64,000 nucleotides of DNA from Chloroflexota bacterium (lineage in GTDB: Bacteria; Chloroflexota; UBA11872; VXNJ01): the NCBI GenBank assembly GCA_965261345.1, contig OZ253449.1, forward strand, positions 1,251,317 through 1,315,316, written 5' to 3'. Shown here one piece after another: positions 16,805 to 51,254 of this stretch (positions are counted from its first letter, which is position 1; each line of letters begins with the position of its first letter). The notes beneath the pieces were generated by a model. That model searched no databases, was not told the origin of the DNA, and saw only the letters and a list, made by a program, of their open reading frames with translations. The translations under genes were made by a program, and so were the position numbers.

Positions 16805-17071
16805 TTGCCGTATCTAGGCACCAAGCAGGAAGCCATCCAAACCCTGCAAAACCATGAGCTGGACACCGGATCAACCGAGGTTCAGATCGGCGTATTGACG
16901 ACGCGCATTGTGCACCTTACCGATCATCTTCGGACGCACAAGCACGACCATCACTCGCGTCGTGGTTTGCTCAAGCTGGTTGGCAAGCGCGGCTCGCTGC
17001 TCAGGTATCTGCGGACCAAGAATTCTCAGCGTTACACGGAGGTGATAAGAACTTTGGAATTGCGCGGCTAA
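16805..17071 (+). CDS. rpsO: 30S ribosomal protein S15
   Basis: 88-aa ORF with ...[41 protein letters not shown]... canonical for S15. It lies upstream of pnp as in most bacteria. Confidence 0.95.
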
Positions 17072-17424: not shown

Positions 17425-20133
17425 TTGAACACCAATATTGGGTTGCCGCTGGGCGAAAACCAGCTGCAACTGGAAACCGGTGATTTGGCGCTGCAGGCTG
17501 ATGGCGCCATCCTGGTTTCGTACGGAGACGTACGCCTTCTTTGCACGGCTTGTATGAAAGACAGCCCGCGCGAAGGACTCGACTTTTTCCCGCTCACCTG
17601 CGACTTTGAGGAAAAATCCTATTCGGTCGGTCACATCCCGGGTTCGGTATTGCGCCGCGAGGGACGTCCTCCCGACAGCGCCACACTGACCGCGCGACTT
17701 ACCGACCGCCCGCTGCGCCCGCTTTTTCCCAAAGGCATGCGCAACGACGTCCAGGTTATTAGCACCCTGCTGGCCTCGGACAAGGACATCGAAGCCGACG
17801 TGCTCGGCATCGTCGGCTGCAGTGCCGCCCTGCATATCTCGCGGATCCCCTTCAACGGGCCGATCGGCGCAGTGCGGATCGGCATGGACGGCGATGATTT
17901 TGTGATCAACCCCACCCGTTCCTTCCTGGCCGCCAATCCGGCTCTGGACATGGTGGTGGCCTCCACCGCCAAGGGTGTGGTCATGATCGAAGCCGGCGCC
18001 TCGCAGATTTCTGAAGCGGTCGTCGAACAGGCGATTGAGTTCGGTCACGAGCAAAACCTGAAGCTAATCGAGCTGCAGGAAGAACTTCGCGATCGTTGCG
18101 GCGTGGAAAAATCCGAGCCGATCATCGTTGGCGTTTCCGACGACTTGATCGACGCGGTCGAGTCGCAGGTCGGTTCCGAACTGGCCGCGGCGGTCCAGAT
18201 CACCGAGGGGCCCGACCGCTCCGAGGCGATCGCGACGGCCATGGCCAATGCCCAGGCGGCGCAGGCCGATTCCGGGCACGAGGCCGGCGACGTCAAGCAG
18301 GCGTTTGACCAGGCGCTAAAGGCCGCCACCCGGGCGGCGATCCTGGACCAGCAGTTGCGTCCCGATGGACGTTCGCCCCAGCAGTTGCGCGAGCTTTCGG
18401 CCAAGGTCGGAATTCTCCCGCGCGTACACGGATCAGGGCTGTTCCAGCGCGGTATGACTCAGTGCCTAAATGTCGTCACGCTGGGTAATGCCCGCTCGGT
18501 GCAGCGCATCGGATTGGACAACCTCGACTGGGAGGAATCCAAGCGCTACATGCACCACTACTACATGCCTCCGTACGCCTCGGGCGAGGCCTACCCGCTG
18601 CGTGGGCAGCGGCGGCGCGAAATTGGGCACGGCATCCTGGCCGAACGCGCAATTGCGCCGGTGTTGCCGAGCGAAGCGGAATTTCCCTACGTGATCCGCA
18701 CCGTTTCCGAGATTCTCTCCTCCAACGGTTCGACCTCGATGGCTGCCACCAGCAGCTCTTCGCTGGCGCTGATGGACGCCGGGGTGCCGCTCAAGGCTCC
18801 GGTGACCGGAATCTCGATCGGGTTGATCTCGGATGGCGAAGGCCGCTATGAGATCCTCTCTGACATCCAAGGTGCCGAGGACCACTTTGGCGACATGGAC
18901 TTCAAGGTTGCTGGCTCCGCCAACGGGGTAACCGCAATCCAGCTGGACATCAAACTGGATCACATCCCGCTGTCGATCGTCGGACCGGTCCTCGAGCAGG
19001 CGCGCGAGTGTCGCCAGGAAATCCTGGCAGTAATGAACGAGGCGCTGTCGACGCCGCGTGGTGACGTTAACGCCTGGGCTCCCAAGATCGTCATCCACAA
19101 GATCGACCCGTCCAAGATCGGTGAGGTCATCGGGCCCGGTGGCAAGGTGATTCGCAAGCTTGAAGAACTGACCGGGGCCTCAATCGACATCGCCGAGGAC
19201 GGCACCCTGACGGTGGCCGCGCCGCAGAAGGAGAAGGCCGCCCAGACGGTGGCCATGATCCGCGACATCATCGGCGACATCGAGATCGGCCGGACCGTGA
19301 AGGGCTCAGTCGAGCGCATCCTGCCGTTTGGTGCTTTCATTGAATTTGCGCCTGGCAAGCAGGGCATGATCCATGTTTCCGAGCTGGCCGACTACCGGGT
19401 CGAACAGGTCGAGGACGAGGTTTCAGTGGGCGATATCGTCGAGGCCAAGGTAATCGAGGTCGATGACCTTGGTCGCATTAACCTCTCGCGCCGCGCGGTA
19501 ATCCAGGGCGATGCCTACGAGGGTTACAAGCCGCGCCGCTCCGGCGGCGGACGACGTGATCGTGAAGGCGGCGACCGTGGTGGATTCCGCGGTGGCGGAC
19601 GACGCGATCGTGAAGGCGGCGACCGTGGTGGATTCCGCGGTGGCGGCGACCGTGGTGGATTCCGCGGTGGCGGCGACCGTGGTGGATTCCGCGGTGGCGG
19701 ACGACGCGACCGTGATGGCGACAGTGGTGGATTCCGCGGTGGCGGACGACGCGACCGTGATGGCGACAGTGGTGGATTCCGCGGTGGCGGACGACGCGAC
19801 CGTGATGGCGACAGTGGTGGATTCCGCGGTGGCGGACGACGCGACCGTGATGGCGACAGCGGCGGCGACCGTGGTGGATTCCGCGGTGGCGGACGACGCG
19901 ACCGTGATGGCGACAGTGGCGGCGACCGTGGTGGATTCCGTGGTGGCGGCGACCGTGGTGGATTCCGCGGTGGCGGACGACGCGACCGTGATGGCGACAG
20001 TGGTGGATTCCGCGGTGGCGGACGACGCGACCGTGATGGCGGCGACCGTGGCAAGGATCGCAATGATCACTCCGGATCGCCCGAGCGCAAGCCTGATCGC
20101 GACCGGCAGCCCGACTGGGAGTTTATGGATTGA
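17425..20133 (+). CDS. pnp: polyribonucleotide nucleotidyltransferase (PNPase) with a long C-terminal RGG/FRGG-repeat tail
   Basis: TTG start. Two RNase PH domains, KH and S1 domains are recognisable (...FGAFIEFAPGKQGMIHVSEL...). An additional ~190 aa of GGFRGGGRRDRDGDSGG-type repeats precedes the stop. The stop overlaps the dapB TTG start. Confidence 0.95.
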   Translation: MNTNIGLPLGENQLQLETGDLALQADGAILVSYGDVRLLCTACMKDSPREGLDFFPLTCDFEEKSYSVGHIPGSVLRREGRPPDSATLTARLTDRPLRPLFPKGMRNDVQVISTLLASDKDIEADVLGIVGCSAALHISRIPFNGPIGAVRIGMDGDDFVINPTRSFLAANPALDMVVASTAKGVVMIEAGASQISEAVVEQAIEFGHEQNLKLIELQEELRDRCGVEKSEPIIVGVSDDLIDAVESQVGSELAAAVQITEGPDRSEAIATAMANAQAAQADSGHEAGDVKQAFDQALKAATRAAILDQQLRPDGRSPQQLRELSAKVGILPRVHGSGLFQRGMTQCLNVVTLGNARSVQRIGLDNLDWEESKRYMHHYYMPPYASGEAYPLRGQRRREIGHGILAERAIAPVLPSEAEFPYVIRTVSEILSSNGSTSMAATSSSSLALMDAGVPLKAPVTGISIGLISDGEGRYEILSDIQGAEDHFGDMDFKVAGSANGVTAIQLDIKLDHIPLSIVGPVLEQARECRQEILAVMNEALSTPRGDVNAWAPKIVIHKIDPSKIGEVIGPGGKVIRKLEELTGASIDIAEDGTLTVAAPQKEKAAQTVAMIRDIIGDIEIGRTVKGSVERILPFGAFIEFAPGKQGMIHVSELADYRVEQVEDEVSVGDIVEAKVIEVDDLGRINLSRRAVIQGDAYEGYKPRRSGGGRRDREGGDRGGFRGGGRRDREGGDRGGFRGGGDRGGFRGGGDRGGFRGGGRRDRDGDSGGFRGGGRRDRDGDSGGFRGGGRRDRDGDSGGFRGGGRRDRDGDSGGDRGGFRGGGRRDRDGDSGGDRGGFRGGGDRGGFRGGGRRDRDGDSGGFRGGGRRDRDGGDRGKDRNDHSGSPERKPDRDRQPDWEFMD
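19545..20060 (+). repeat. in-frame tandem DNA repeats (30-51 bp units) encoding the PNPase Arg/Gly-rich tail
   Basis: The units ggcggacgacgcgaccgtgatggcgacagtggtggattccgcggt and ggcggcgaccgtggtggattccgcggt are repeated about 12 times with small variations. Confidence 0.9.
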
Positions 20134-20909
20134 TCAAAGTTGCGGTATCCGGGGCCGCCGGGCGCATGGGCCAGCAAGTGGCCGCAGCGACTCTGGAAGC
20201 TCCAGATACCGCACTGGTCGGTCTCTATGACTTGGCTCCGATCCCGGCCCAACTGGCGCCAGGGATCGGGGCCCCGGCGCGCGGCTCCGACCTTGACGGG
20301 GTTTTAAAAAACTCCGGAGCACAGGTGTTGGTGGACTTTACCAACGCCGCCGCCGGATCAGATCACCTGCACCGGGCAATTGAACTGGGGGTCAGTCCGG
20401 TGGTGGGCACTACCGGGTTCGACCCAGAAACCATCGACCGGTTGGCCAACGCGGCCGACCAGACCGGAATCGGGGCCTTTCTGGCTCCGAACTTCGCCCT
20501 CGGGGCAGTCCTGCAAATGCAGATGTGCGAATTGGCGGCGCGCCATTTCAACACCGTCGAAATCATCGAACTCCATCACGATCAAAAGATCGACGCCCCT
20601 TCAGGGACCGCAATGGCCACGGCGGCCAAGATAGCTGCAGCGGCCGGTGGAGCCCGCGATGTTAGGACGGAAAAATTTGCCCTGGAAGGTGCCCGCGGCG
20701 GCAATTTCGAGGGCGTGAAGGTGCACTCGGTGCGCCTGCCCGGACTGGTCGCCCACCAGGAAGTTATCTTCGGCGGGCTGGGGCAGACCCTTACCCTGCG
20801 TCACGATTCAATCAGTCGTGAATCGTTCATGCCCGGCGTACTGTTGGCGGTCCGGCGGGTCAGAGGGCTTTCTGGCCTGGTTGTGGGGCTGGAGCACCTG
20901 CTTAACTAG
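20130..20909 (+). CDS. dapB: 4-hydroxy-tetrahydrodipicolinate reductase
   Basis: 259-aa ORF. The N-terminal MIKVAVSGAAGRMG Rossmann motif and the HHDQKIDAPSGTA region identify it. Confidence 0.9.
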   Translation: MIKVAVSGAAGRMGQQVAAATLEAPDTALVGLYDLAPIPAQLAPGIGAPARGSDLDGVLKNSGAQVLVDFTNAAAGSDHLHRAIELGVSPVVGTTGFDPETIDRLANAADQTGIGAFLAPNFALGAVLQMQMCELAARHFNTVEIIELHHDQKIDAPSGTAMATAAKIAAAAGGARDVRTEKFALEGARGGNFEGVKVHSVRLPGLVAHQEVIFGGLGQTLTLRHDSISRESFMPGVLLAVRRVRGLSGLVVGLEHLLN

Positions 20910-23047: not shown

Positions 23048-23680
23048 CTGCCGGGACCCGAAGTCGGCCGGTCGATTGATGAGCTCGCCGACGCAATAAG
23101 GGCCTGCACCGATTGCGGCCTCTGCGCCGGTCGCCGGCAGGCGGTGCCGGGCGAGGGCAATCCAGATGCGCAGATCATGTTCATCGGCGAAGGCCCGGGG
23201 GCCCGCGAGGACGAGTCGGGTCGACCATTCGTCGGACCGTCCGGCCGGTTTCTGGGTGAGATGCTCACCAGCATCGGGCTTGACCGCTCTGACGTATTTA
23301 TCACCAACGTGGTCAAGTGCCGCCCGCCGGGCAACCGCGATCCGCTGCCGGAGGAAATTAGCGCCTGCTCGCACTGGCTCAAGGAGCAGATTAAGGTCAT
23401 CGCCCCAAAGGTTGTAATCTTGCTGGGCCGGCATGCCTTGCAACGTTTTTTGCCCGGGCGACGGATTTCTGCCGAACACGGCAGCATCCACCCATTCGGA
23501 TCGATCAGCGCGATGCCGATGTATCACCCGGCGGCGGCCTTGCACAACCCGCGGTTGCGCCAGGACTGCCTTGCCGATTTTCAGAGGTTGGCCAGTTTTC
23601 TGGCCGCGCCGCCGCCCGCCCCGACACCAGGCCCAGTCGAGCCTGACCCCAGCCCGCCCGTACAGAGATCGCTTTTCTAA
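23048..23680 (+). CDS. uracil-DNA glycosylase, family 4 (Fe-S type)
   Basis: The GEGPG(A)RED and VVKCRPPGNRDP motifs identify it. The reading frame continues upstream of the track's start codon through LADAIRACTDCGLCAGRRQAVPGEG, the family-4 Cys motif, so the true start is a non-ATG codon near 23048 and is uncertain. Confidence 0.8.
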   Translation: MPGPEVGRSIDELADAIRACTDCGLCAGRRQAVPGEGNPDAQIMFIGEGPGAREDESGRPFVGPSGRFLGEMLTSIGLDRSDVFITNVVKCRPPGNRDPLPEEISACSHWLKEQIKVIAPKVVILLGRHALQRFLPGRRISAEHGSIHPFGSISAMPMYHPAAALHNPRLRQDCLADFQRLASFLAAPPPAPTPGPVEPDPSPPVQRSLF

Positions 23681-23765
23681 AACACCGCGAGCTAAAGCGG
23701 CCGCCGCCCCGACTCGGCAGCCGACCCAACCCACTTTTGATTCATCTAGTTACAAGGTCTGTAAT

Positions 23766-25433
23766 TTGAAATCCAATCCGAAATCACTCCGCGCCACTTT
23801 TCTAGGGGGCCTGGGCGATGTCGGTCGCAACTGTCTGCTGCTCGAATGCGGCAACGACGCCATCCTGGTCGATTGCGGCGTACTATTTCCCGATGATCGG
23901 GTCAGCGGGGTCGATGTCATCCTGCCCGACTTTTCGCTGCTGGAGCCATACGCTGATAAGCTGCGCGGGGTCATCTTCACCCACGGCCACGAGGACCACA
24001 TCGGGGCCGCCCCGTACCTGTTGGCTAAATACGACCTGCCGCTTTATGGCTCGCCGTTGACGCTCTCCTTCCTGCGCGAGCGACTCGAGCAGAAAGGCCT
24101 GGCAAGCAAGGCCGACCTGCGGCGGCTGCGCGAGCGCCGGACCACCCAGCTGGGCTGCTTTGACATCACCCCGTTCCATGTCTGCCATTCAATTCCCGAC
24201 GCGATGGGTTTTGCGATCGGCACCCCGGTCGGCACCCTTATCCACACCGGCGATTACATGATCGACAACCAGCCGATCGACGGCCAACCGACCGACCTGC
24301 AGATGCTCGGGGCGCTGGGGGCAGAGGGCGTGCTGGCCCTGTTTGCCGATTCAACCAACGCCGACACGCCGGGGCACACTCCCTCGCAGCAGACGGTATA
24401 CGACGGTCTCGCCCAAGTGTTTGCGCAGGCCGACTATGGGCGGGTCATCGTGGCCAGCTTTTCCTCGAACCTGACCCGGGTCCAGCAGATCGCTGACCTG
24501 GCCGGGAACCACGGGCGCCGGGTCTGCGTGCTGGGACGATCGTTGGAGCGCAATCTGCCACTGGCCTCGGAGCTGGCCCTGCTCGACATCGAGCCGGGCG
24601 ACCTGATCCCGACAAAGCTGATCGACCAGATCCCGCACGAAGAGCTGGCGATCGTTTGCACCGGCAGCCAGGGGGAGCCCGGTTCGGCGCTCTCGCGCCT
24701 GGCCGATGGTCGCCACCCGCTGTTGGAAATAGATGAGGGCGACACGGTGGTGATTTCGGCCTCGGCAATCCCCGGCAACGAGCGTACGGTGCAGCGGATG
24801 ATCGGGAAGCTCTTCCGCCGCGGCGCCAACGTGGTATTTGGAAAACTCGGTCACGTGCACGTGAGCGGACACCCGGCCCGTGAGGACACCCGCGCCCTGC
24901 TGTCGGTTGTGCGCCCGCAATTTTTCGTGCCGGTCCATGGCAGTCACCACCATCTGGCCTTGCAGGCCCAGGTGGCGATTGAATCGGGAATGTCGCGGGA
25001 GGCGGTGCTGGTCGCCGCCGATGGCGATGTGGTCGATATCTCAGCTGATTCGATCGAATTGGTAGAGCATCGATCCTGCCCCCACATCTATGTGAATCGT
25101 GGCGCCGCTCCGGGCGTGGAGCTAAGCGAACCCTGCCTGCGGCAGCGGCAGCAGCTGGCCAACGCCGGGGTCGTGGCGGTACACGCCCAGATCGACCTGA
25201 GCTGCGGCCAGCTGGTCGGTCGCCCGCAGCTGGTCTCGCACGGGCTAATGGGCGGGGCCGAGCGGAAGATGTCCAAGCTTGCCGGCCGGCTCGGCCAGCT
25301 GCTGTCGGGCGATCGCCGGGAATTGCCCAACCTTGATGCGGCGAATGCAAAAGTTAAGATGGTTGTAGGGAGGCAAATAAAAGCCGAAACAGGCTTGCGG
25401 CCAACGATCCTGGCGATCGTTACCGCGGCTTGA
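23766..25433 (+). CDS. rnj: ribonuclease J (metallo-beta-lactamase / beta-CASP)
   Basis: The HGHEDHIG motif, the beta-CASP region and the C-terminal domain identify it. The start is set at TTG 23766 (LKSNPKSLRATFLGG...), giving 555 aa. The longer track ORF overlaps the UDG gene out of frame. Confidence 0.9.
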   Translation: MKSNPKSLRATFLGGLGDVGRNCLLLECGNDAILVDCGVLFPDDRVSGVDVILPDFSLLEPYADKLRGVIFTHGHEDHIGAAPYLLAKYDLPLYGSPLTLSFLRERLEQKGLASKADLRRLRERRTTQLGCFDITPFHVCHSIPDAMGFAIGTPVGTLIHTGDYMIDNQPIDGQPTDLQMLGALGAEGVLALFADSTNADTPGHTPSQQTVYDGLAQVFAQADYGRVIVASFSSNLTRVQQIADLAGNHGRRVCVLGRSLERNLPLASELALLDIEPGDLIPTKLIDQIPHEELAIVCTGSQGEPGSALSRLADGRHPLLEIDEGDTVVISASAIPGNERTVQRMIGKLFRRGANVVFGKLGHVHVSGHPAREDTRALLSVVRPQFFVPVHGSHHHLALQAQVAIESGMSREAVLVAADGDVVDISADSIELVEHRSCPHIYVNRGAAPGVELSEPCLRQRQQLANAGVVAVHAQIDLSCGQLVGRPQLVSHGLMGGAERKMSKLAGRLGQLLSGDRRELPNLDAANAKVKMVVGRQIKAETGLRPTILAIVTAA

Positions 25434-43919: not shown

Positions 43920-44702
43920 CTACGAAGGGTTGACCACCGAGGTAATCTCATCAGCGATTTCTTCAATCGTGTGCGTTGCGGTGCTCCGAGCCAGTTTGGC
44001 GGCGAGCGATGGACTGCGTTTGAGTAATTCTGCTTTGGTTAGGTTGTGCCAAATGGGCAGCAAAGCTTGGTCATCGTCTGAACTCAAGTCTCGGGAAACC
44101 AGCCCATCCAATTCGTACTGCGGCCACTCTTTATCGAAGAATTCCGGCGAAAGGACAACTACGCCGAAACGACTATTGGCCAATCCCGCGTCAATCTTCC
44201 TTCGGAGGTTTCCGCCAATTCGCAATTCGAATTCGTCGAACCAAACTCGCAAGTCTCGATCCTCGAGAGCCTGTGCCAGTGGCCGCACAATATCGTCCTT
44301 GTTTTCGCTGGCGTAAGAAATGAATACATCGAAAACTTGACTGGGTCCACCATTTTTTCCATTTGACTGGATTGACTGGTCGCGGACCAAAGAAGGGACT
44401 GATGAAAGCGGGCGCTCTCGAATTTCGGGTAGCGGACGAGGCAATATCCGAATGGAAGCGTTTGTACGCCCTTTTAGGCCCTGCATATCGACCGCCACAT
44501 GCCAATTCCCAGAGTGCGGTATTGCCAGGTGCACGGGTGATCGCCTAGCCATCCCACCTACATATTGGTGCTTGCGCCCGCTTTTGTATGCAGTGAAATT
44601 CGAGCTGTCCAATAGTTGGACGTTTGCCGCGTTCCCAGTGAGGGTGACTTCGACGACTTCGCCGCGTTCGCGGTATCCAATGTTGCTGTGAATGAAATTC
44701 AA
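43920..44702 (-). CDS. TIR-domain protein with an N-terminal DUF1883-like domain
   Basis: The C-terminal half reads FDVFISYASENKDDIV...VWFDEFELRIGG...FGVVVLSPEFFDKEWPQYELDGL, a bacterial TIR with a putative catalytic Glu in WPQYEL. The N-terminal ~100 aa (MNFIHSN...SNFTAYKSGRKHQYVGG...IPHSGNWHVAVD) resemble DUF1883. GC content is lower than the surrounding genome. Confidence 0.8.
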   Translation of the reverse strand: MNFIHSNIGYRERGEVVEVTLTGNAANVQLLDSSNFTAYKSGRKHQYVGGMARRSPVHLAIPHSGNWHVAVDMQGLKGRTNASIRILPRPLPEIRERPLSSVPSLVRDQSIQSNGKNGGPSQVFDVFISYASENKDDIVRPLAQALEDRDLRVWFDEFELRIGGNLRRKIDAGLANSRFGVVVLSPEFFDKEWPQYELDGLVSRDLSSDDDQALLPIWHNLTKAELLKRSPSLAAKLARSTATHTIEEIADEITSVVNPS

Positions 44703-45382
44703 TTCGCCGGTGCCCCGCGATACAAATGTGGGAACAAACTTAGCAATTGGACTTTGTGATTCGCCTGTCTTCCGGAGCCTTTGCGAACCGCCGAATTAAT
44801 CACTGCGCTCGCGGCACTGCACAGTCGTTCGGCTTGATTGGCGTTGCCTGTTTCGCTCGAGCGGTCGAGGCCTTGAATCGGGATTGTTCAAGAGAAAGTC
44901 AATCGTCATTCGGCATTAATCACGTTATGGCTAATCTGGTTTTTCTGGCAGCAGAGGTCGATGATAGGTAATTCTCCATTGAGTTCAAGCTTAGTCGGGG
45001 TGGAGACCATCCCGGACCCGAGCAAATCTGCCGATTTGAATAATACCGGCCTCAATGAACTGCCGGCCACGCTTGTGTGCGAATTGCACGCGGAGCGATT
45101 TGAGCAAATGTGACTGATCGCACCGAATTGAAATTTCTATAGCGAATATATATCCGTGCGGTAATTGATCGTCTGCGCGGCAATTGGCGCTCGGGCGATC
45201 AGGAGTCTGCGAGAAAGCCTCACACGTTGGATTTCTGGTCCAAAATTGATCCCGAATTGACGGGGTTTCGACCAAGAGTTTGACCCTTTGTTGCCAATGA
45301 TGGATCCACTCTGGCAATCCAGCGTCTTGACACCCATTAATCGAAACTCACCCAGGATTAGGTTCGGATTATTTGAGGCCCT

Positions 45383-46888
45383 ATGAGCAAACTTGATGGC
45401 CCTTGCGATCTATTGGAACTTTCGGCCAATTCGGCTCGCGAGGAATTGTTGCGATCGGAAAACTATTGCACTTTTGATTTGCCCGATTACTTCACGTTTT
45501 CCGCATTGATTGCAGACGCACACTCTGCTGTGACTGGAAAGACTCGACGGGAGGTAGGCAGCAGCAAAGCGCGTGATTATGAAGACGTCAATTTTTTGGT
45601 CGCACACAACAAAGATGGGCGACTGGCGTGGCGCCCTTGGGCACTCGTCCATCCAGTCCTGTACGCGGCCTTGGTGGACGTGATAACCATAGATGCGAAT
45701 TGGGAGTTGATTCAACGGCGATTTTTCAAATTGAATTGCGAGCCCGATATTCGATGCTCCAGTCGTCCAGTTGTCGGAATGACTTCCAAAATGCGGAAGG
45801 ATTTGGAAATCCACCGGTGGTGGGAGGGGGCAGAGCAGGCTTCAATCGAATTGGCGCTGCAATATTCTTACGTCGTGCATACCGACGTCACCAACTGTTA
45901 TCAATCTATTTACACGCATTCGATCGCCTGGGCAATTCACACAAAGGAAGTTGCTAGAGCGAATAAAGACGATCAACAATTGATTGGAAATGTCATTGAC
46001 AAATATTTGCAGGACATGTCCCTTGGGCAAACGAATGGAATTTGCCAAGGCTCGATATTGATGGATTTGATTGCCGAATGCGTTCTGGCTTACGCGGACG
46101 AGCAATTGGCATCGAATCTAAAGGGTAGCTACGATGGGAAATACAAGATCTTGCGACACCGCGATGATTACAGGATTTTTGTCAATGATCCTAAATTGGG
46201 CGAAGAGATATTGAAAGCGCTTTCCGATGTGTTGAGAGCATTGGGAATGTCCCTAAACTCCGGCAAGACGGAAACCAGTGACGACGTGATCGGGGCAGCG
46301 ATTAAGCGTGACAAACTTGCGTGGCTTTGGCGCAATAAACCAGAGGGCGATCTGCAGAAAAAACTGTTGGCGTTACGGGCGCATGGACTCGAGTATCCAA
46401 ATGGCGGATCCGTAGAGACCGGGCTGCATGAATGCTACGAGAATTTCAATGGCGGGGTAATGGAGGGGGCAATTCTCCCGACGATTGCCATCGTGGCGGA
46501 TATCGCGGTTAGGAATCCGCGCGCCTATCCGATTGCGGCATCGCTAATCAGCTTGTTGATTGGGCAATTGGAGGAAGGGAGTGCTAAACAGGACGCAATG
46601 AGAGCCGTTGAGGATCGTTTTCGTCGCGTTCCGAAAGCGGAATTGATGCACGTTTGGGTAAATAGGGTCGGAATAAAGCTTGGATATGACGCGTTCGCCG
46701 AATCTTCATTGTGCAAATCTGTCAGCAATGGGTCGGCGGAGATTTGGGCACACGATTGGATTTGCGATGCCCAACTGAAATCAAAAATGTTGAGTGGAAC
46801 CATCGTTGACAAAATGCGGATTGCCGAGTTGCCAGAGATGGTGTCAAAAGAAGAGGTAGAGGAACTCACCTTTGTTTATGACGGATAA
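45383..46888 (+). CDS. stand-alone reverse transcriptase of the Abi/defence-associated (UG/DRT-like) type
   Basis: Motif A is YVVHTDVTNCYQSIYTHSI, motif B is GICQGSILMDLIAE, motif C is the non-canonical YKILRHRDDYRIFV, and motif D/E is LRALGMSLNSGKTE. A ~180-aa alpha-helical C-terminal extension follows. There is no integrase, maturase or retron VTG signature. The gene is divergent from the TIR gene across a 680-bp spacer. Confidence 0.8.
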   Translation: MSKLDGPCDLLELSANSAREELLRSENYCTFDLPDYFTFSALIADAHSAVTGKTRREVGSSKARDYEDVNFLVAHNKDGRLAWRPWALVHPVLYAALVDVITIDANWELIQRRFFKLNCEPDIRCSSRPVVGMTSKMRKDLEIHRWWEGAEQASIELALQYSYVVHTDVTNCYQSIYTHSIAWAIHTKEVARANKDDQQLIGNVIDKYLQDMSLGQTNGICQGSILMDLIAECVLAYADEQLASNLKGSYDGKYKILRHRDDYRIFVNDPKLGEEILKALSDVLRALGMSLNSGKTETSDDVIGAAIKRDKLAWLWRNKPEGDLQKKLLALRAHGLEYPNGGSVETGLHECYENFNGGVMEGAILPTIAIVADIAVRNPRAYPIAASLISLLIGQLEEGSAKQDAMRAVEDRFRRVPKAELMHVWVNRVGIKLGYDAFAESSLCKSVSNGSAEIWAHDWICDAQLKSKMLSGTIVDKMRIAELPEMVSKEEVEELTFVYDG

Positions 46889-47074
46889 ATTATTCGAAAA
46901 ATCCGGGTTGTGACGTTTAAGTGATTGTCAGATGCAGATAGCGGTAGTGAATGCAACGAACCGTCGATTGGAAGTAAACATAATCACGTTTATCTCTAAT
47001 GCCTATCGACTCCGAATGAAGGACTGTCGATAGAGGGCCAGGCGGCCTTGCCGCTAAACGTTTAAGCCGTTACT

Positions 47075-47225
47075 GATCACGTCCCCTGGAGTGGTGTAAG
47101 AGCACCAGCTTGATCAACTAAGCCAACGCGATGACAAAGGGCCATCGTGTAAACCTCTACGGAGTCACTTCACTTACTTCGTCGAGGAACCATCGATGGC
47201 CCAACTTGATTATCAGACTTTGCTT
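47075..47225 (+). mobile_element. 150-bp terminal fragment of an IS256-like element (left end, inverted relative to the full copy at 48.3-50.0 kb)
   Basis: Near-identical to the reverse complement of 49865..50010, including the transposase start MAQLDYQTLL. It is truncated at 47225 by a solo IS3 terminal repeat. Confidence 0.7.
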
Positions 47226-47252
47226 GCCATTATTGGCCGGCTCCCCCTCATT
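47226..47252 (+). repeat. solo IS3-family terminal inverted repeat
   Basis: TGGCCGGCTCCCCCTCATTGGTACCAGAGGGA is identical to the left end of the IS3 copy at 57412..57443. It has no adjoining IS3 body. Confidence 0.6.
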
Positions 47253-47780
47253 GGTACCAGAGGGAAGGGAAGAGAGCGCCGGTATGGCTGGGGTGCGCGG
47301 GGCGACCAGATCAGCAACGTCCTGACAATCAAAGCGCTTCCCCTGGTCTAAGAGATTGGACAGGGCCTCATCGACATCGGCCTCCATGGTAGTGGCCGCC
47401 AATTGCAGGATGCGCAGGTAATTGACGTCGGCGCTGTGCTGACCGCGCCACTGGCAAAGCGCATCGTAGGCGCGGCGGAAGGTAAGGGTGGGGAAGAGCT
47501 GCTCGCGCCAGCGGTAGCGGGCAAAGGCGCCGGGCTCCAAGCACCAGCGATCCGATCACGTGGCGGTAATTGACGCGGGCCCGCAATGCTCCCGTGGCGC
47601 GCTCTAGGCGCTCGACCAATCGGCCCTTGTAGTACACGTCCAGGTGATCGGCATAGAGACGGACTTCCACCTTCTGTCCGATCAGGCGTGGTGGTACCGT
47701 GTAGGTGCGGCCCGAGATTTGGATGGTGCTCCATTTGCGCACCACCGCGCATTGACTCACTGTTTTTGTAACCCAAACAG
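47253..47780 (-). pseudogene. IS21-family istA transposase fragment (C-terminal half, frameshifted, 5'-truncated)
   Basis: Two minus-strand ORFs in different frames carry IstA signatures: ...YTVPPRLIGQKVEVRLYADHLDVYYKGRLV... and ...FRRAYDALCQ...NYLRILQLAATTMEADVDEAL... Confidence 0.55.
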
Positions 47781-48269
47781 GGCCGTTGCCTCACTAGCAA
47801 CCGTGTCAAAAGTCAAACCCGCCGGGGTGGGATCAGAGAGGGTCCGGGAGATAAGGGAGGAGTGAAATCAGCTCCCTTTGTCAGGCGCATACCCTGCAAA
47901 GACCCATGCGCTGGGTACGGCTTCGCCAGGGACCTTGCCGGGCGCCTTGCCCGGCGTTGACAAAAAGCAGATTGGCTTCAGACCACCGGGTGCTCCCCGC
48001 GCCGGGGTCGCTCCGGATATCGCGGCCGGCTACGCGGGCGCCTGCTCCCGCCAGGGCTCACCGCGGCCGGCCACCGAGTTAAGGGCGATCAACAGCTTGC
48101 GCATGCAGGCGGTCAACGCCACCTTTTTTGGCTTACGAACGGCCAGTCTAACTGGCATTGGACAGCGGGTGAAAGTCCCGCATGCTGAAAGGAAAGGAGC
48201 CAATCCGCAGCACTCCGCGAGTCATGCGTGACCGGTCGCGAGGCCGGGCATGAAGCGTGGACGTGTCCC

Positions 48270-50010
48270 ACGGTGTGGTGTAACTAAGCCGTCCTCTACG
48301 TTTAGGGGTTCGGCAGCTGCAACTCTACAGAGTTGCAGCTGCCGGCAGGGCCGGCAGATGGTTGCTGGGGCTTGCTGGGGGAGTTTCGAGTCCTTGGCTG
48401 TGACGGCGACTGCCGGTAAGGCGTCCATCATTTTGCCAGTTGCGACCATGGCGCGGTCGTGGTCATATGGGCTTCCATGGGTCCGAAGGCCGGCCCCGGC
48501 CCGTAACGGCTCGCATTCGGGCTCACCGGGCCGGGTTTGTTGGGAAAGTCGGCCCAATTCGACGCTAGTGATCCTTATTTAGGCCCAGCTAGCGCCAAGC
48601 CGGGCGCACGACCTTCCATTTCCCTGGAGGGCGCTACGGCCCCCGGCGGCGGTTGCTACCCCGCCGGCAATGCCAGCGGGGACTGCCTCTCTCCCGGAGA
48701 TGGGGGTTGGCCGATTAAGGCCATCGAGTGCCTGGACATATAGCGGCGCTCGGATGCGAGCCATTCGTCGTTCTGCTCAATTAGGACCGCTCCGATAAGG
48801 CGCAGGACCGAGTCATCGTCGGGGAAGAGCTGTACTACCCGGGTGCGGCGCTTTAGCTCGCCCATAACGCGCTCTAGGGGATTGGTGGACCAGATCTTGC
48901 GCCAGTGCGAAGGCGGGAAGGCGGTGTAGGCAGTCAGGGCGATCTCGGAGTCCTCGAGGATCGTGGACAGTTCCGGATACTTGCGCTCTAAGCGATCGGC
49001 GAAATCTCCGAAGGCGTCCATGGCGCTCTGCTTGTCAGCCTGCCCAAACAGCGACGCCAGTCCGGCTGCCACCAGCCCGCGGTCGCCGCTTCTGACCCTT
49101 GGTAGAAGATTGCGCCCAAAGTGTGTCCTGCACGTCTGCCAGGCGGCCTCGGGAATAAGCTTTGTCACCGCGTTGCCGATGGCTTGGTTCCCATCGGAGA
49201 TCACCAGCCGCACGCCGGATAGACCGCGCGTTACCAGGGAGGCGAGCAAGTCCTCCCCGAAGCCCTGCGCTTCGCTGTGGCCGATTGCAAGCCCCAGCAG
49301 CTCGCGATGGCCGTTCTCGTTTACGGCCATTGCTATGCCCACCGCCCGCGACCTTACCGCATGCGCGTTTCGGGCTTTTACGTAGGTGGCGTCGAGATAG
49401 AGGTACGGGAAGGTCGTATGCGAGAGATCGCGTTCGCGGAAGGCATTGACCAGCTCGTCGATGCCTTTGCAGATCCTTGACACCTCGGACCTGGAGATCC
49501 CGGCGTTTACTCCCATCGCCTCCACCAGCTTGTCGACCTTGCGGGTGGAGACGCCCTTGCTGTAGGCGGTCATGATGACGCCGTAGAGGGCCTGGTCGAT
49601 GCGGCGCCGCCGCTCCAAGAACTCGGGGTAGTAGCTGCCTTGGCGCAGCTTGGGCAGGGCAATCTCGATGTCGCCCGCCCGGGTGGAGAGGGTGCGCTTG
49701 CGCGAGCCGCCAAAGCCGATTGCGACGCTCGCCGTTGCGCTCGTGCGGTTGGGCGCCGATGTTTTCGGCCAGGCCGGCGTCAATAAGTTCCTGGTAGGCG
49801 TGCCGTACGGCGCTGCGGACGAATTCGCTGCTGTCAAACCCTTGCTTGGCGATAAGGGCAAGCAAGGTCTGATAATCAAGTTGGGCCATCGATGGTTCCT
49901 CGACGAAGTAAGTGAAGTGACTCCGTAGAGGTTTACACGATGGCCCTTTGTCATCGCGTTGGCTTAGTTGATCAAGCTGGTGCTCTTACACCACTCTAGG
50001 GGACGTGATC
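48270..50010 (-). mobile_element. IS256-family insertion sequence (approximately 1.74 kb) with imperfect terminal inverted repeats
   Basis: The left end GATCACGTCCCCTAGAGTGGTGTAAGAGCACC (reverse complement at 50010) and the IRR-like GACGTGTCCCACGGTGTGGTGTAACTAAGCC at 48270 support the call. The element contains a mutator-type transposase. The IRR assignment is tentative. Confidence 0.55.
48656..49889 (-). pseudogene. IS256-family (mutator-type) transposase with an apparent frameshift
   Basis: The N-terminus MAQLDYQTLLALIAKQG...ELIDAGLAENIGAQPHER is in one frame. The rest (...GSRKRTLSTRAGDIEIALPKLRQGSYYPEFLERRRRIDQALYGVIMTAYSKGVSTRKVDKLVEA...DDE core) is in another frame. The shift falls near the conserved RNG-RKR region. 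Confidence 0.65.
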
Positions 50011-50066
50011 CCGCCGCACCCAGCGCTACGTCCCAAAACCCGATCCGAAAGAGGACAACCTCGTAG

Positions 50067-51254
<1,188 letters not shown>

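Follow-up and report, generated by a model that had tools for sequence, protein, structure and literature searches.

An expanded, repeat-encoded arginine/glycine-rich tail on the polynucleotide phosphorylase of a Chloroflexota bacterium

The pnp gene in a 64,000-nucleotide (nt) stretch of the genome of an uncultured Chloroflexota bacterium (contig OZ253449.1 of assembly GCA_965261345.1, positions 1,251,317 to 1,315,316 of the forward strand; this whole stretch is hereafter called the window) encodes a polynucleotide phosphorylase (PNPase) whose canonical core is followed by a long arginine/glycine-rich (R/G-rich) tail, encoded for the most part by near-identical tandem DNA repeats. As judged from sequence, the tail is a genuine and translated C-terminal extension of the enzyme, and the PNPase frame is the real one across the repeats. 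R/G-rich tails of this kind look ancestral to the PNPases of Chloroflexota, with that of the window being the most expanded version examined. We consider it reasonably probable that the tail is a selectively maintained RNA-capture arm on an intact PNPase, resembling the RGG/GAR (glycine/arginine-rich) regions of eukaryotes and carrying a conserved, putative docking motif at its terminus.

The pnp gene occupies 17425-20133 on the + strand and encodes 902 amino acids (aa), the tail included, before a TGA stop codon at 20131-20133, as recorded by the open reading frame (ORF) list, Pfam and NCBIfam. Its canonical core (aa 1-690, 17425-19494, + strand), delimited with Pfam, an AlphaFold2 (AF2) model and solved structures, contains two RNase PH domains, the helical PNPase domain, KH and S1. 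The Pfam matches, all above the gathering thresholds, were RNase_PH in two stretches, RNase_PH_C, PNPase, KH_1 and S1, and the domains follow the order RNase PH, helical, RNase PH, KH (aa 559-613) and S1 (aa 619-690, 19279-19494). The NCBIfam equivalogs for PNPase, TIGR03591 and NF008805, scored 855.3 bits (cut-off 471) and 849.6 bits (cut-off 525), with the match spanning aa 9-691 and model positions 6-682 of 683, and 27 solved PNPase sequences aligned to query residues 4-702, with matches at 1e-192 and none reaching further. The catalytic block E485-D486-H-F-G-D490-M-D492-F-K494 is present, with E485, D486, G489, D490, M491, D492, F493 and K494 invariant across a 55-sequence alignment, and it includes D486, D492 and K494, the catalytic metal-binding residues of the second PH domain by E. 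coli numbering. The AF2 monomer, built from the 55-sequence alignment, gave predicted local distance difference test (pLDDT) values mostly between 80 and 98 for the core. By its domains and residues the protein is a PNPase with intact catalytic residues, and by homology it would be active as a homotrimeric phosphorolytic 3'-5' exoribonuclease. Domain order, the D486/D492/K494 motif and the rpsO-pnp gene pair are all common to this protein and the canonical bacterial PNPases (E. coli Pnp and the GpsI of Streptomyces and Mycobacterium; PDB 3cdi, 1e3h, 7ld5 and 8zaw), whereas the solved or modelled PNPases end about 0-30 residues after S1 and that of the window adds 199 disordered repeat residues and a conserved terminal motif. 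The tail lies outside every PNPase family model and solved structure, in keeping with the first-pass annotation of this DNA, a reading from the letters and ORFs, which had described a canonical PNPase ending after S1 with a tail beyond it.

The tail starts at R704 (nt 19534) and ends 199 residues later with D902 (nt 20130), both included, in ...RQPDWEFMD. A linker with a degenerate first half-unit (aa 691-718, 19495-19578, + strand; RAVIQGDAYEGYKPRRSGGGRRDREGGDR) leads into it, in which GD.Y.GY[KR]PRRSGGG is kept in the clade and along which the AF2 pLDDT falls. This is followed by the tandem array of 11 units, each initiated by GGFRGGG (aa 719-875, 19579-20049, + strand), which was delimited by Tandem Repeats Finder (TRF), unit parsing and a 20-mer count, and in which the units follow the order E (48 nt), B (27), B (27), A (45), A, A, D (57), D, B, A and a terminal unit of 48 nt. 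The non-repeat end segment (aa 876-902, 20050-20130, + strand; GKDRNDHSGSPERKPDRDRQPDWEFMD) closes with the terminal motif QPDWEFMD (aa 895-902, 20107-20130, + strand), which is clade-wide. The 20-mer GGTGGATTCCGCGGTGGCGG was found in 10 exact copies and in one further copy with a single synonymous C>T change, all within 19579-20021, with no copies in 100 shuffles. The periods returned by TRF were 45, 84 and 102, at scores between 281 and 499. The near-identity of the DNA repeats claimed in the first-pass annotation was therefore borne out, the 20-nt core being identical in 10 of the 11 units. Its description of about twelve GGFRGGG-type units leading from S1 to ...PDWEFMD was right in unit type and ending, but the count is 11; its repeat length of 30-51 bp gives way to measured units of 27, 45, 48 and 57 nt; and the long RGG/FRGG tail, put at about 190 aa, is real but measures 199 aa from R704, or 188 aa from the first GGDRGGF.

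An array of about 470 nt of near-identical units exceeds a short read, and one related locus carries a frameshifted tail, so that an assembly artefact, with a collapsed or expanded repeat or a mis-joined frame, had to be considered, though the evidence makes it hardly credible. A protein 100% identical to that of the window (P0001) lies on a 2.39-Mb contig, and a second assembly from another sample (L086, on a 773-kb contig) has the same unit architecture, with 17 nt differences over the whole gene. Relatives with equivalent tails were found on contigs of 1.34, 2.10 and 2.32 Mb, and the contig name of one relative suggests a circular contig at 34x coverage. The tail was also found on a 9-kb contig with 1.5x coverage by name, which should therefore be close to a single long read, the use of long reads being taken from contig names. 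The frame, furthermore, leads into the conserved terminal motif and a 4-nt overlap with the next gene, dapB (20130-20909, + strand, TTG start; ORF list and Pfam). The stop TGA of pnp and the start TTG of dapB overlap as TTGA at 20130-20133, an overlap also present in six related loci (L081, L083, L086, L087, L088 and L089) and not in L082 or L084, which implies that translation passes through the tail straight to dapB, and which suggests translational coupling of this lysine-biosynthesis gene to pnp.

All unit lengths of the arrays across genomes (27, 33, 39, 45, 48, 51, 57 and 69 nt) are multiples of three, and where unit cores differ from genome to genome, the changes are at the third codon positions that the PNPase frame defines (GGT GGA TTC CGC, GGC GGT TTC CGC and GGT GGC TTC CGT). 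These two features, the conserved end motif and the dapB overlap together indicate that the PNPase frame is the coding one. Three long alternative-frame ORFs over the tail, namely an antisense ORF of 215 aa (19423-20070, - strand), a companion antisense ORF of 179 aa (19524-20063, - strand) and a companion ORF of 239 aa in another frame (19511-20230, + strand), gave no NCBIfam family match, and with substitutions falling on third positions of the PNPase frame they are artefactual, as had been supposed for the long antisense ORFs. In the frameshifted relative, L085, a run of Gs within the tail is one G too long and splits pnp into ORFs of 724 and 111 aa (L085:5100-5510), and the second ORF carries the tail on in frame to ...EPDWEFMD; the frameshift is most simply a homopolymer sequencing error, and it could be a natural truncation of the tail.

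The composition of the tail is strongly biased, with G at 38%, R at 26%, D at 18% and F at 6%, together making up 88% of the residues, while Ala is absent and Pro is at 1.5%. The charged residues are 52 Arg, 36 Asp and 4 Glu, giving a fraction of charged residues of 0.47, a net charge per residue of +0.07 and a charge segregation (kappa) of 0.085, and an aromatic residue occurs every 9-19 residues. There are 18 RGG in the tail, with seven non-overlapping Di-RGG and three Tri-RGG matches (aa 734-745, 747-758 and 835-846), the latter under RGG(X0-4)RGG(X0-4)RGG, the definition of Thandapani et al. 2013. In the AF2 model the pLDDT is below 50 from aa 700, and residues 700-902 lie at 25-41 with no secondary structure, so that the tail matches the RGG/RG motif class in sequence pattern and in predicted disorder. 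The earlier description of an RGG-rich tail was right as to the RGG content, but with Asp at 18% the tail is a polyampholyte whose charges are well mixed, and an RGG box of purely basic character would be the wrong picture of it.

Within the clade of the window, the tail was found to be general. The five lineages nearest to the window (P0001-P0006 and their cluster members), at core identities of 82-100%, are all long-tailed, with 135-220 aa after the 'LS' motif of S1, and all end in [QE]PDWEF[MV]D, which is the C-terminus of all clade members down to 82% core identity, the frameshifted L085 included. In the branch at 82% core identity, the tails of L082-L085 (P0003-P0006) carry a second element, R(P)QRRR[NS][WF][SD]DD, about 30-40 residues before the PDWEF tip, which is absent from the tails of the window and L081.

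Beyond the clade, all 113 tails measured among the 120 best homologues were R/G-rich, with lengths of 42-220 aa (median 87; 42 tails longer than 100 aa) and a median R+G fraction of 0.55, the named homologues being labelled Chloroflexota, Dehalococcoidia, Ktedonobacterales or Herpetosiphonaceae. A scan of species-representative genomes, in which the best PNPase match had 54-55% identity, gave R/G-rich tails of 21-111 aa at 12 of 12 loci labelled Chloroflexota, Dehalococcoidia or Anaerolineae. In Omnitrophota, Planctomycetota, Verrucomicrobiota, Bacillota and Acidobacteriota, most PNPases continue for no more than 0-20 non-RG residues past S1. One locus of another label, L002 (PBDG01000074.1, 'Rhodospirillaceae bacterium SP354'), has a PNPase 54% identical to the query and an RG tail of the Chloroflexota type, nearly identical to that of the P0037-P0047 group, and its contig is probably mis-binned or mis-labelled. 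By the first-pass annotation's own standard, that a tail universal and conserved in close relatives would not be lineage-specific, strict lineage-specificity does not hold, since all close relatives are tailed and a shorter R/G-rich tail was present on every Chloroflexota PNPase examined. The clade of the window stands apart in the extreme length of its tails, in the regularity of their FRGG/RRDRDGDS units and in their ending, PDWEF[MV]D. The other Chloroflexota tails (Herpetosiphonaceae, Ktedonobacterales and Dehalococcoidia labels; P0105, P0107 and P0061-P0099) are likewise disordered and R/G-rich right after S1, often with DRGG[FY] units, but are usually 40-150 aa long, richer in Gly, poorer in Asp and less regular, whereas the clade of the window has the longest tails, 214-220 aa after S1, with near-perfect DNA repeats.

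The GC (guanine plus cytosine) content of the genomes does not explain this distribution, since 9 of 11 non-Chloroflexota loci at a GC of at least 0.58 have 18 or fewer non-RG residues after S1, while Chloroflexota at a GC of 0.53-0.55 are RG-tailed. A GC-driven amino-acid bias was ruled out as the cause of the tail on the same 9 of 11 high-GC PNPases of other phyla, and the absence of Ala, the 1.5% Pro, the 18% Asp and the 6% Phe likewise indicate that GC pressure did not simply produce it.

Differential endings were also observed for the tails of the phylum: in contrast to PDWEF[MV]D in the clade of the window, other Chloroflexota tails end in FRREPGSPPPPPPPAPM[KR]RW, PGPIKS or RYRD. A large group (P0061-P0106; Chloroflexota/Dehalococcoidia) has tails ending in a strongly conserved ...GFRREPGSPPPPPPPAPM[KR]RW, and further groups end in ...PGPIKS, ...RPQDRRGW or ...R[YF]RD. 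Clade-specific conserved tips after variable R/G arrays seem to recur throughout these tails, with an aromatic residue among the last five residues in 50 of the 113 Chloroflexota tails, where the tail bodies would lead one to expect 17.8; the sequences are not phylogenetically independent, which makes this no more than a lead.

Searches with the tail only were of little help. A word-indexed search returned 10 weak matches, to MarR-like Coriobacteriia proteins with DRGG[FY]RGGN tails, and missed the query's own protein, and an exhaustive phmmer search of 1.84 billion representatives gave two chance low-complexity matches (a eukaryotic Bud13 and a G-protein-coupled receptor), the composition correction of HMMER making tail-only queries uninformative. 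These MarR-like winged-helix proteins of about 270-330 aa (P0160-P0169), one of them from Parolsenella massiliensis (Coriobacteriia), has C-terminal DRGG[FY]RGGN tandem repeats much like the PNPase units, which is a convergent use of this repeat type on a DNA/RNA-binding fold.

The repeat arrays exhibit rapid turnover and homogenisation within genomes. The cores of the window and L081 differ at 4.9% of nucleotides and 10% of third positions (90% third-position identity). In the window, 10 of the 11 units open with the four codons GGTGGATTCCGC, as do 8 of 11 units in one of its two closest strains and 10 of 10 in the other; the opening is GGCGGTTTCCGC in 10-11 of the 11 units of L081, L087 and L088, and GGTGGCTTCCGT in 6 of the 8 units of L082. 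Synonymous variants are thus fixed within genomes and different between genomes, which is the hallmark of concerted evolution through slippage, unequal recombination or gene conversion. Unit orders change between strains with nearly identical cores, such as EBBAAADDBA in P0001 and BARAARAAAA in P0123 (98.7% core identity), and BAAAAAAAAA in P0121 and CCCaAAaaaaR in P0002 (99.1%); in P0002 and P0124, with cores 100% identical, all five nt differences lie in the tail, where Gly/Pro variants are swapped in two units. Between the window and L086, 8 differences were found in the 2100 nt of the core and 9 in the 609 nt of the tail. The recent expansion suggested in the first-pass annotation agrees with these patterns, as the repeats are near-identical and recently homogenised within each genome, and so does the predicted variation in copy number and architecture, which a comparison of pnp length across relatives revealed as PNPases of 900, 902, 908 and effectively 889 aa among strains with 96-100% core identity. 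A phase-variable (contingency) repeat locus was ruled out, as all units are multiples of 3 nt and all strain variants are in frame, so that variation of the array is limited to length and composition.

Several properties of the tail persist through this turnover. The reading frame and the terminal [QE]PDWEF[MV]D are kept at 82% core identity, although the array between core and tip is wholly rebuilt, and the net charge remains between +13 and +17 in tails that vary from 135 to 220 aa, with this conservation of charge and tip drawn from only about five independent lineages. These constancies bear on a possible but doubtful alternative, by which a short basic tail would suffice and the long array would be a tolerated, neutral by-product of a slippage-prone, GC-rich repeat. 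Drift of this kind would account for the way in which the units change in number, order and type from strain to strain at core identities of 98.7-100%; tails across the phylum range from about 20 to 220 aa, with most Chloroflexota managing with 40-90 aa; and L085 may hold a truncating frameshift. On the other hand, the long tail is kept in 5 of 5 clade lineages down to 82% core identity, with the frame always maintained, the tip downstream of the variable array invariant and the charge held within its narrow range, and neither the composition, which is not a matter of GC pressure alone, nor the lack of such tails on high-GC PNPases of other phyla accords with mere tolerance. We therefore favour the selectively maintained RNA-capture arm, in which replication slippage, or unequal recombination with gene conversion between near-identical units, would grow, shrink and homogenise the array, while selection would preserve the frame and the terminal [QE]PDWEF[MV]D and hold the net charge near +15.

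In the PNPase homotrimer, the entry channel for RNA is crowned by the S1 and KH domains. The trimer would accordingly bear three flexible tails, each about 200 aa long and together holding 33 FRGG units, that extend from this S1/KH crown. They could act as low-specificity, multivalent arms for RNA capture and tethering, concentrate RNA locally at the mouth of the channel and aid the enzyme in keeping hold of strongly structured transcripts in a genome of about 63% GC. The Arg/Phe 'stickers', regularly spaced among Gly/Asp/Ser 'spacers', would also make RNA-dependent self-association plausible, and the acidic-aromatic tip would most likely be a short linear motif that docks on a partner protein or on the OB-fold (oligonucleotide/oligosaccharide-binding) or KH surface of PNPase itself. 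RNA binding, tethering, condensation and tip docking by the tail are only what we infer, and several points weigh against this account in addition to the small number of independent lineages. No docking of the tip on the core appears in the AF2 monomer, where the pLDDT of the tip is 25-31. With 36 Asp to 52 Arg, the charge of the tail is close to neutral and well mixed, and its non-specific binding of RNA should be weaker than that of a purely basic RGG box. Unit number and type turn over fast, so that the exact length is not tightly constrained, and the tail of L085 is cut off by its frameshift, which might be a tolerated loss as well as a sequencing error. Finally, full-text literature searches, which reached few subscription journals, turned up no paper on, or experiment with, a PNPase that has an RGG-type or disordered tail.

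The same acidic residues and tip could instead serve an autoregulatory tail, in which Asp-rich segments and the acidic-aromatic tip fold back on the basic faces of S1 (OB fold) and KH and gate the substrate, much as bacterial SSB (single-stranded DNA-binding protein) combines a disordered linker with an acidic tip. The 36 Asp and 4 Glu, the acidic-aromatic C-terminus DWEFMD and the above-mentioned excess of aromatic residues near the ends of the tails (50 of 113, against 17.8 expected, in phylogenetically non-independent sequences) would fit such a role, but the tip is undocked in the AF2 monomer at its low pLDDT and the net charge of the tail is positive, and we regard this alternative as very unlikely.

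The proposed RNA-capture arm has parallels among known disordered RNA-binding regions. Eukaryotic RGG/GAR domains bind RNA and promote condensates, and arginine methylation is not expected in bacteria. The domains of fibrillarin, nucleolin, GAR1 and the FUS family share with the tail of the window repeated RGG with interspersed Phe, disorder and the Tri-RGG pattern, whereas the tail is bacterial, is fused to an exoribonuclease and is a near-neutral polyampholyte with 18% Asp; the resemblance is convergent, with no common descent. In bacteria, arginine-rich disordered insertions raise the RNA affinity of Rho in high-GC species (PMC11347177), and the atypical Rho proteins of Micrococcus, Mycobacterium and Bacteroides (PMC11347177, PMC13650167) resemble the tail in being conserved OB-fold RNA enzymes with a lineage-specific, compositionally biased intrinsically disordered region (IDR), for which links to structured RNA of high GC content, to a higher affinity for RNA and to phase separation have been reported (PMC11347177, PMC13650167). 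The Rho IDRs, however, are internal or N-terminal and are not encoded by near-perfect tandem DNA repeats, whereas the tail of the window is C-terminal on PNPase. Basic disordered C-terminal extensions on RNA-decay enzymes are also found in DEAD-box helicases (RhlE1/RhlE2 and Type II RhlB; PMC11260450, PMC13462270) and in the RNase E scaffold; in RhlE helicases the C-terminal IDRs set RNA binding and phase separation (PMC11260450), and the helicase and RNase E extensions tune RNA binding, partner choice and condensation (PMC11260450, PMC13462270), the IDR of RNase E carrying short linear motifs (SLiMs). In RNase E systems PNPase is a client recruited by an RNase E SLiM, whereas the PNPase of the window itself bears the IDR and a candidate SLiM.

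This contrast raises the idea, begun in the first-pass annotation as a possible stand-in for an RNase E-type degradosome scaffold, that in this clade PNPase may have turned from a client of the degradosome into its organiser, acting as a degradosome or condensate scaffold whose tails would replace the disordered C-terminal half of RNase E, drive RNA-dependent condensation and phase-separate with RNA without an RNase E scaffold, with the PDWEF[MV]D tip recruiting a partner such as RNase J or a helicase and repeat turnover tuning the condensates between strains. A long sticker-spacer IDR on a trimeric enzyme would provide multivalency, a conserved terminal motif after a variable IDR recalls the SLiMs of RNase E, and bacterial RNA-decay condensates and their effect on PNPase, which they stimulate, are established (PMC10412687). 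An RNase J gene, rnj (23433-25433, + strand), furthermore lies four genes downstream of pnp in the string rpsO-pnp-dapB-asd-dapA-rnj-ftsK of the window, of which the part from rpsO to dapA is kept syntenic in L081-L089. Of the traits of an RNase E-type scaffold, a long predicted-disordered IDR (199 aa, 26% Arg) is present, but the RNase E/G domain is absent from the pnp product in Pfam and NCBIfam, so that this PNPase is not a member of that type and would be at most a functional analogue. The low charge segregation (kappa 0.085) and the near-neutral charge also disfavour strong homotypic coacervation, the Chloroflexota with tails of 40-50 aa would need another solution, and self-association and partner binding are here proposed by analogy. 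In the survey of RNases that could take part, which covered the 64-kb window of a 2.39-Mb genome, only RNase J was seen. We consider a scaffold role of this kind unlikely.

All parts of this PNPase are of known kinds, namely the enzyme itself, an IDR of the RGG/GAR type and tandem coding repeats that evolve in concert, and by itself the finding reveals no new kind of system. PNPase is among the most conserved RNA-decay enzymes, and here one phylum adds an R/G-rich disordered tail that one clade expands to about 200 residues. The tails offer a natural allelic series for the effects of RGG tails on a bacterial ribonuclease, including RNA capture, structured GC-rich RNA, condensates and docking, and an RNA-capture role would extend the picture of IDRs on RNase E, Rho and DEAD-box helicases to PNPase, which is usually a client. 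The arrays also show cleanly how a coding repeat within a housekeeping gene can evolve in concert.

Upstream of pnp, the window carries rpsO for ribosomal protein S15 (16805-17071, + strand; ORF list, Pfam and synteny), the usual upstream partner of pnp. The rpsO-pnp intergenic region is alignable among the closest relatives only, and Rfam at gathering thresholds gave no match over the whole window, so that no known pnp leader was detected. The listed ORF of RNase J starts about 110 codons too early, with Lactamase_B beginning at aa 128 and the upstream part reading as non-coding, and the protein has no RG-rich tail. Further along the window, a low-GC (0.50-0.54) island with four genes was observed at 43920-51254, comprising a TIR-domain protein (43920-44702, - strand; PADLOC PDC-S66 at 1e-62 and ThsB-like at 3e-35), a full-length AbiP2-type defence reverse transcriptase (45383-46888, + strand; PADLOC AbiP2 at 4.8e-165), an IS256/Mutator-family transposase (48656-49954, - strand) and an IS110 transposase (50109-51254, + strand), and this island looks like a mobile anti-phage defence island.

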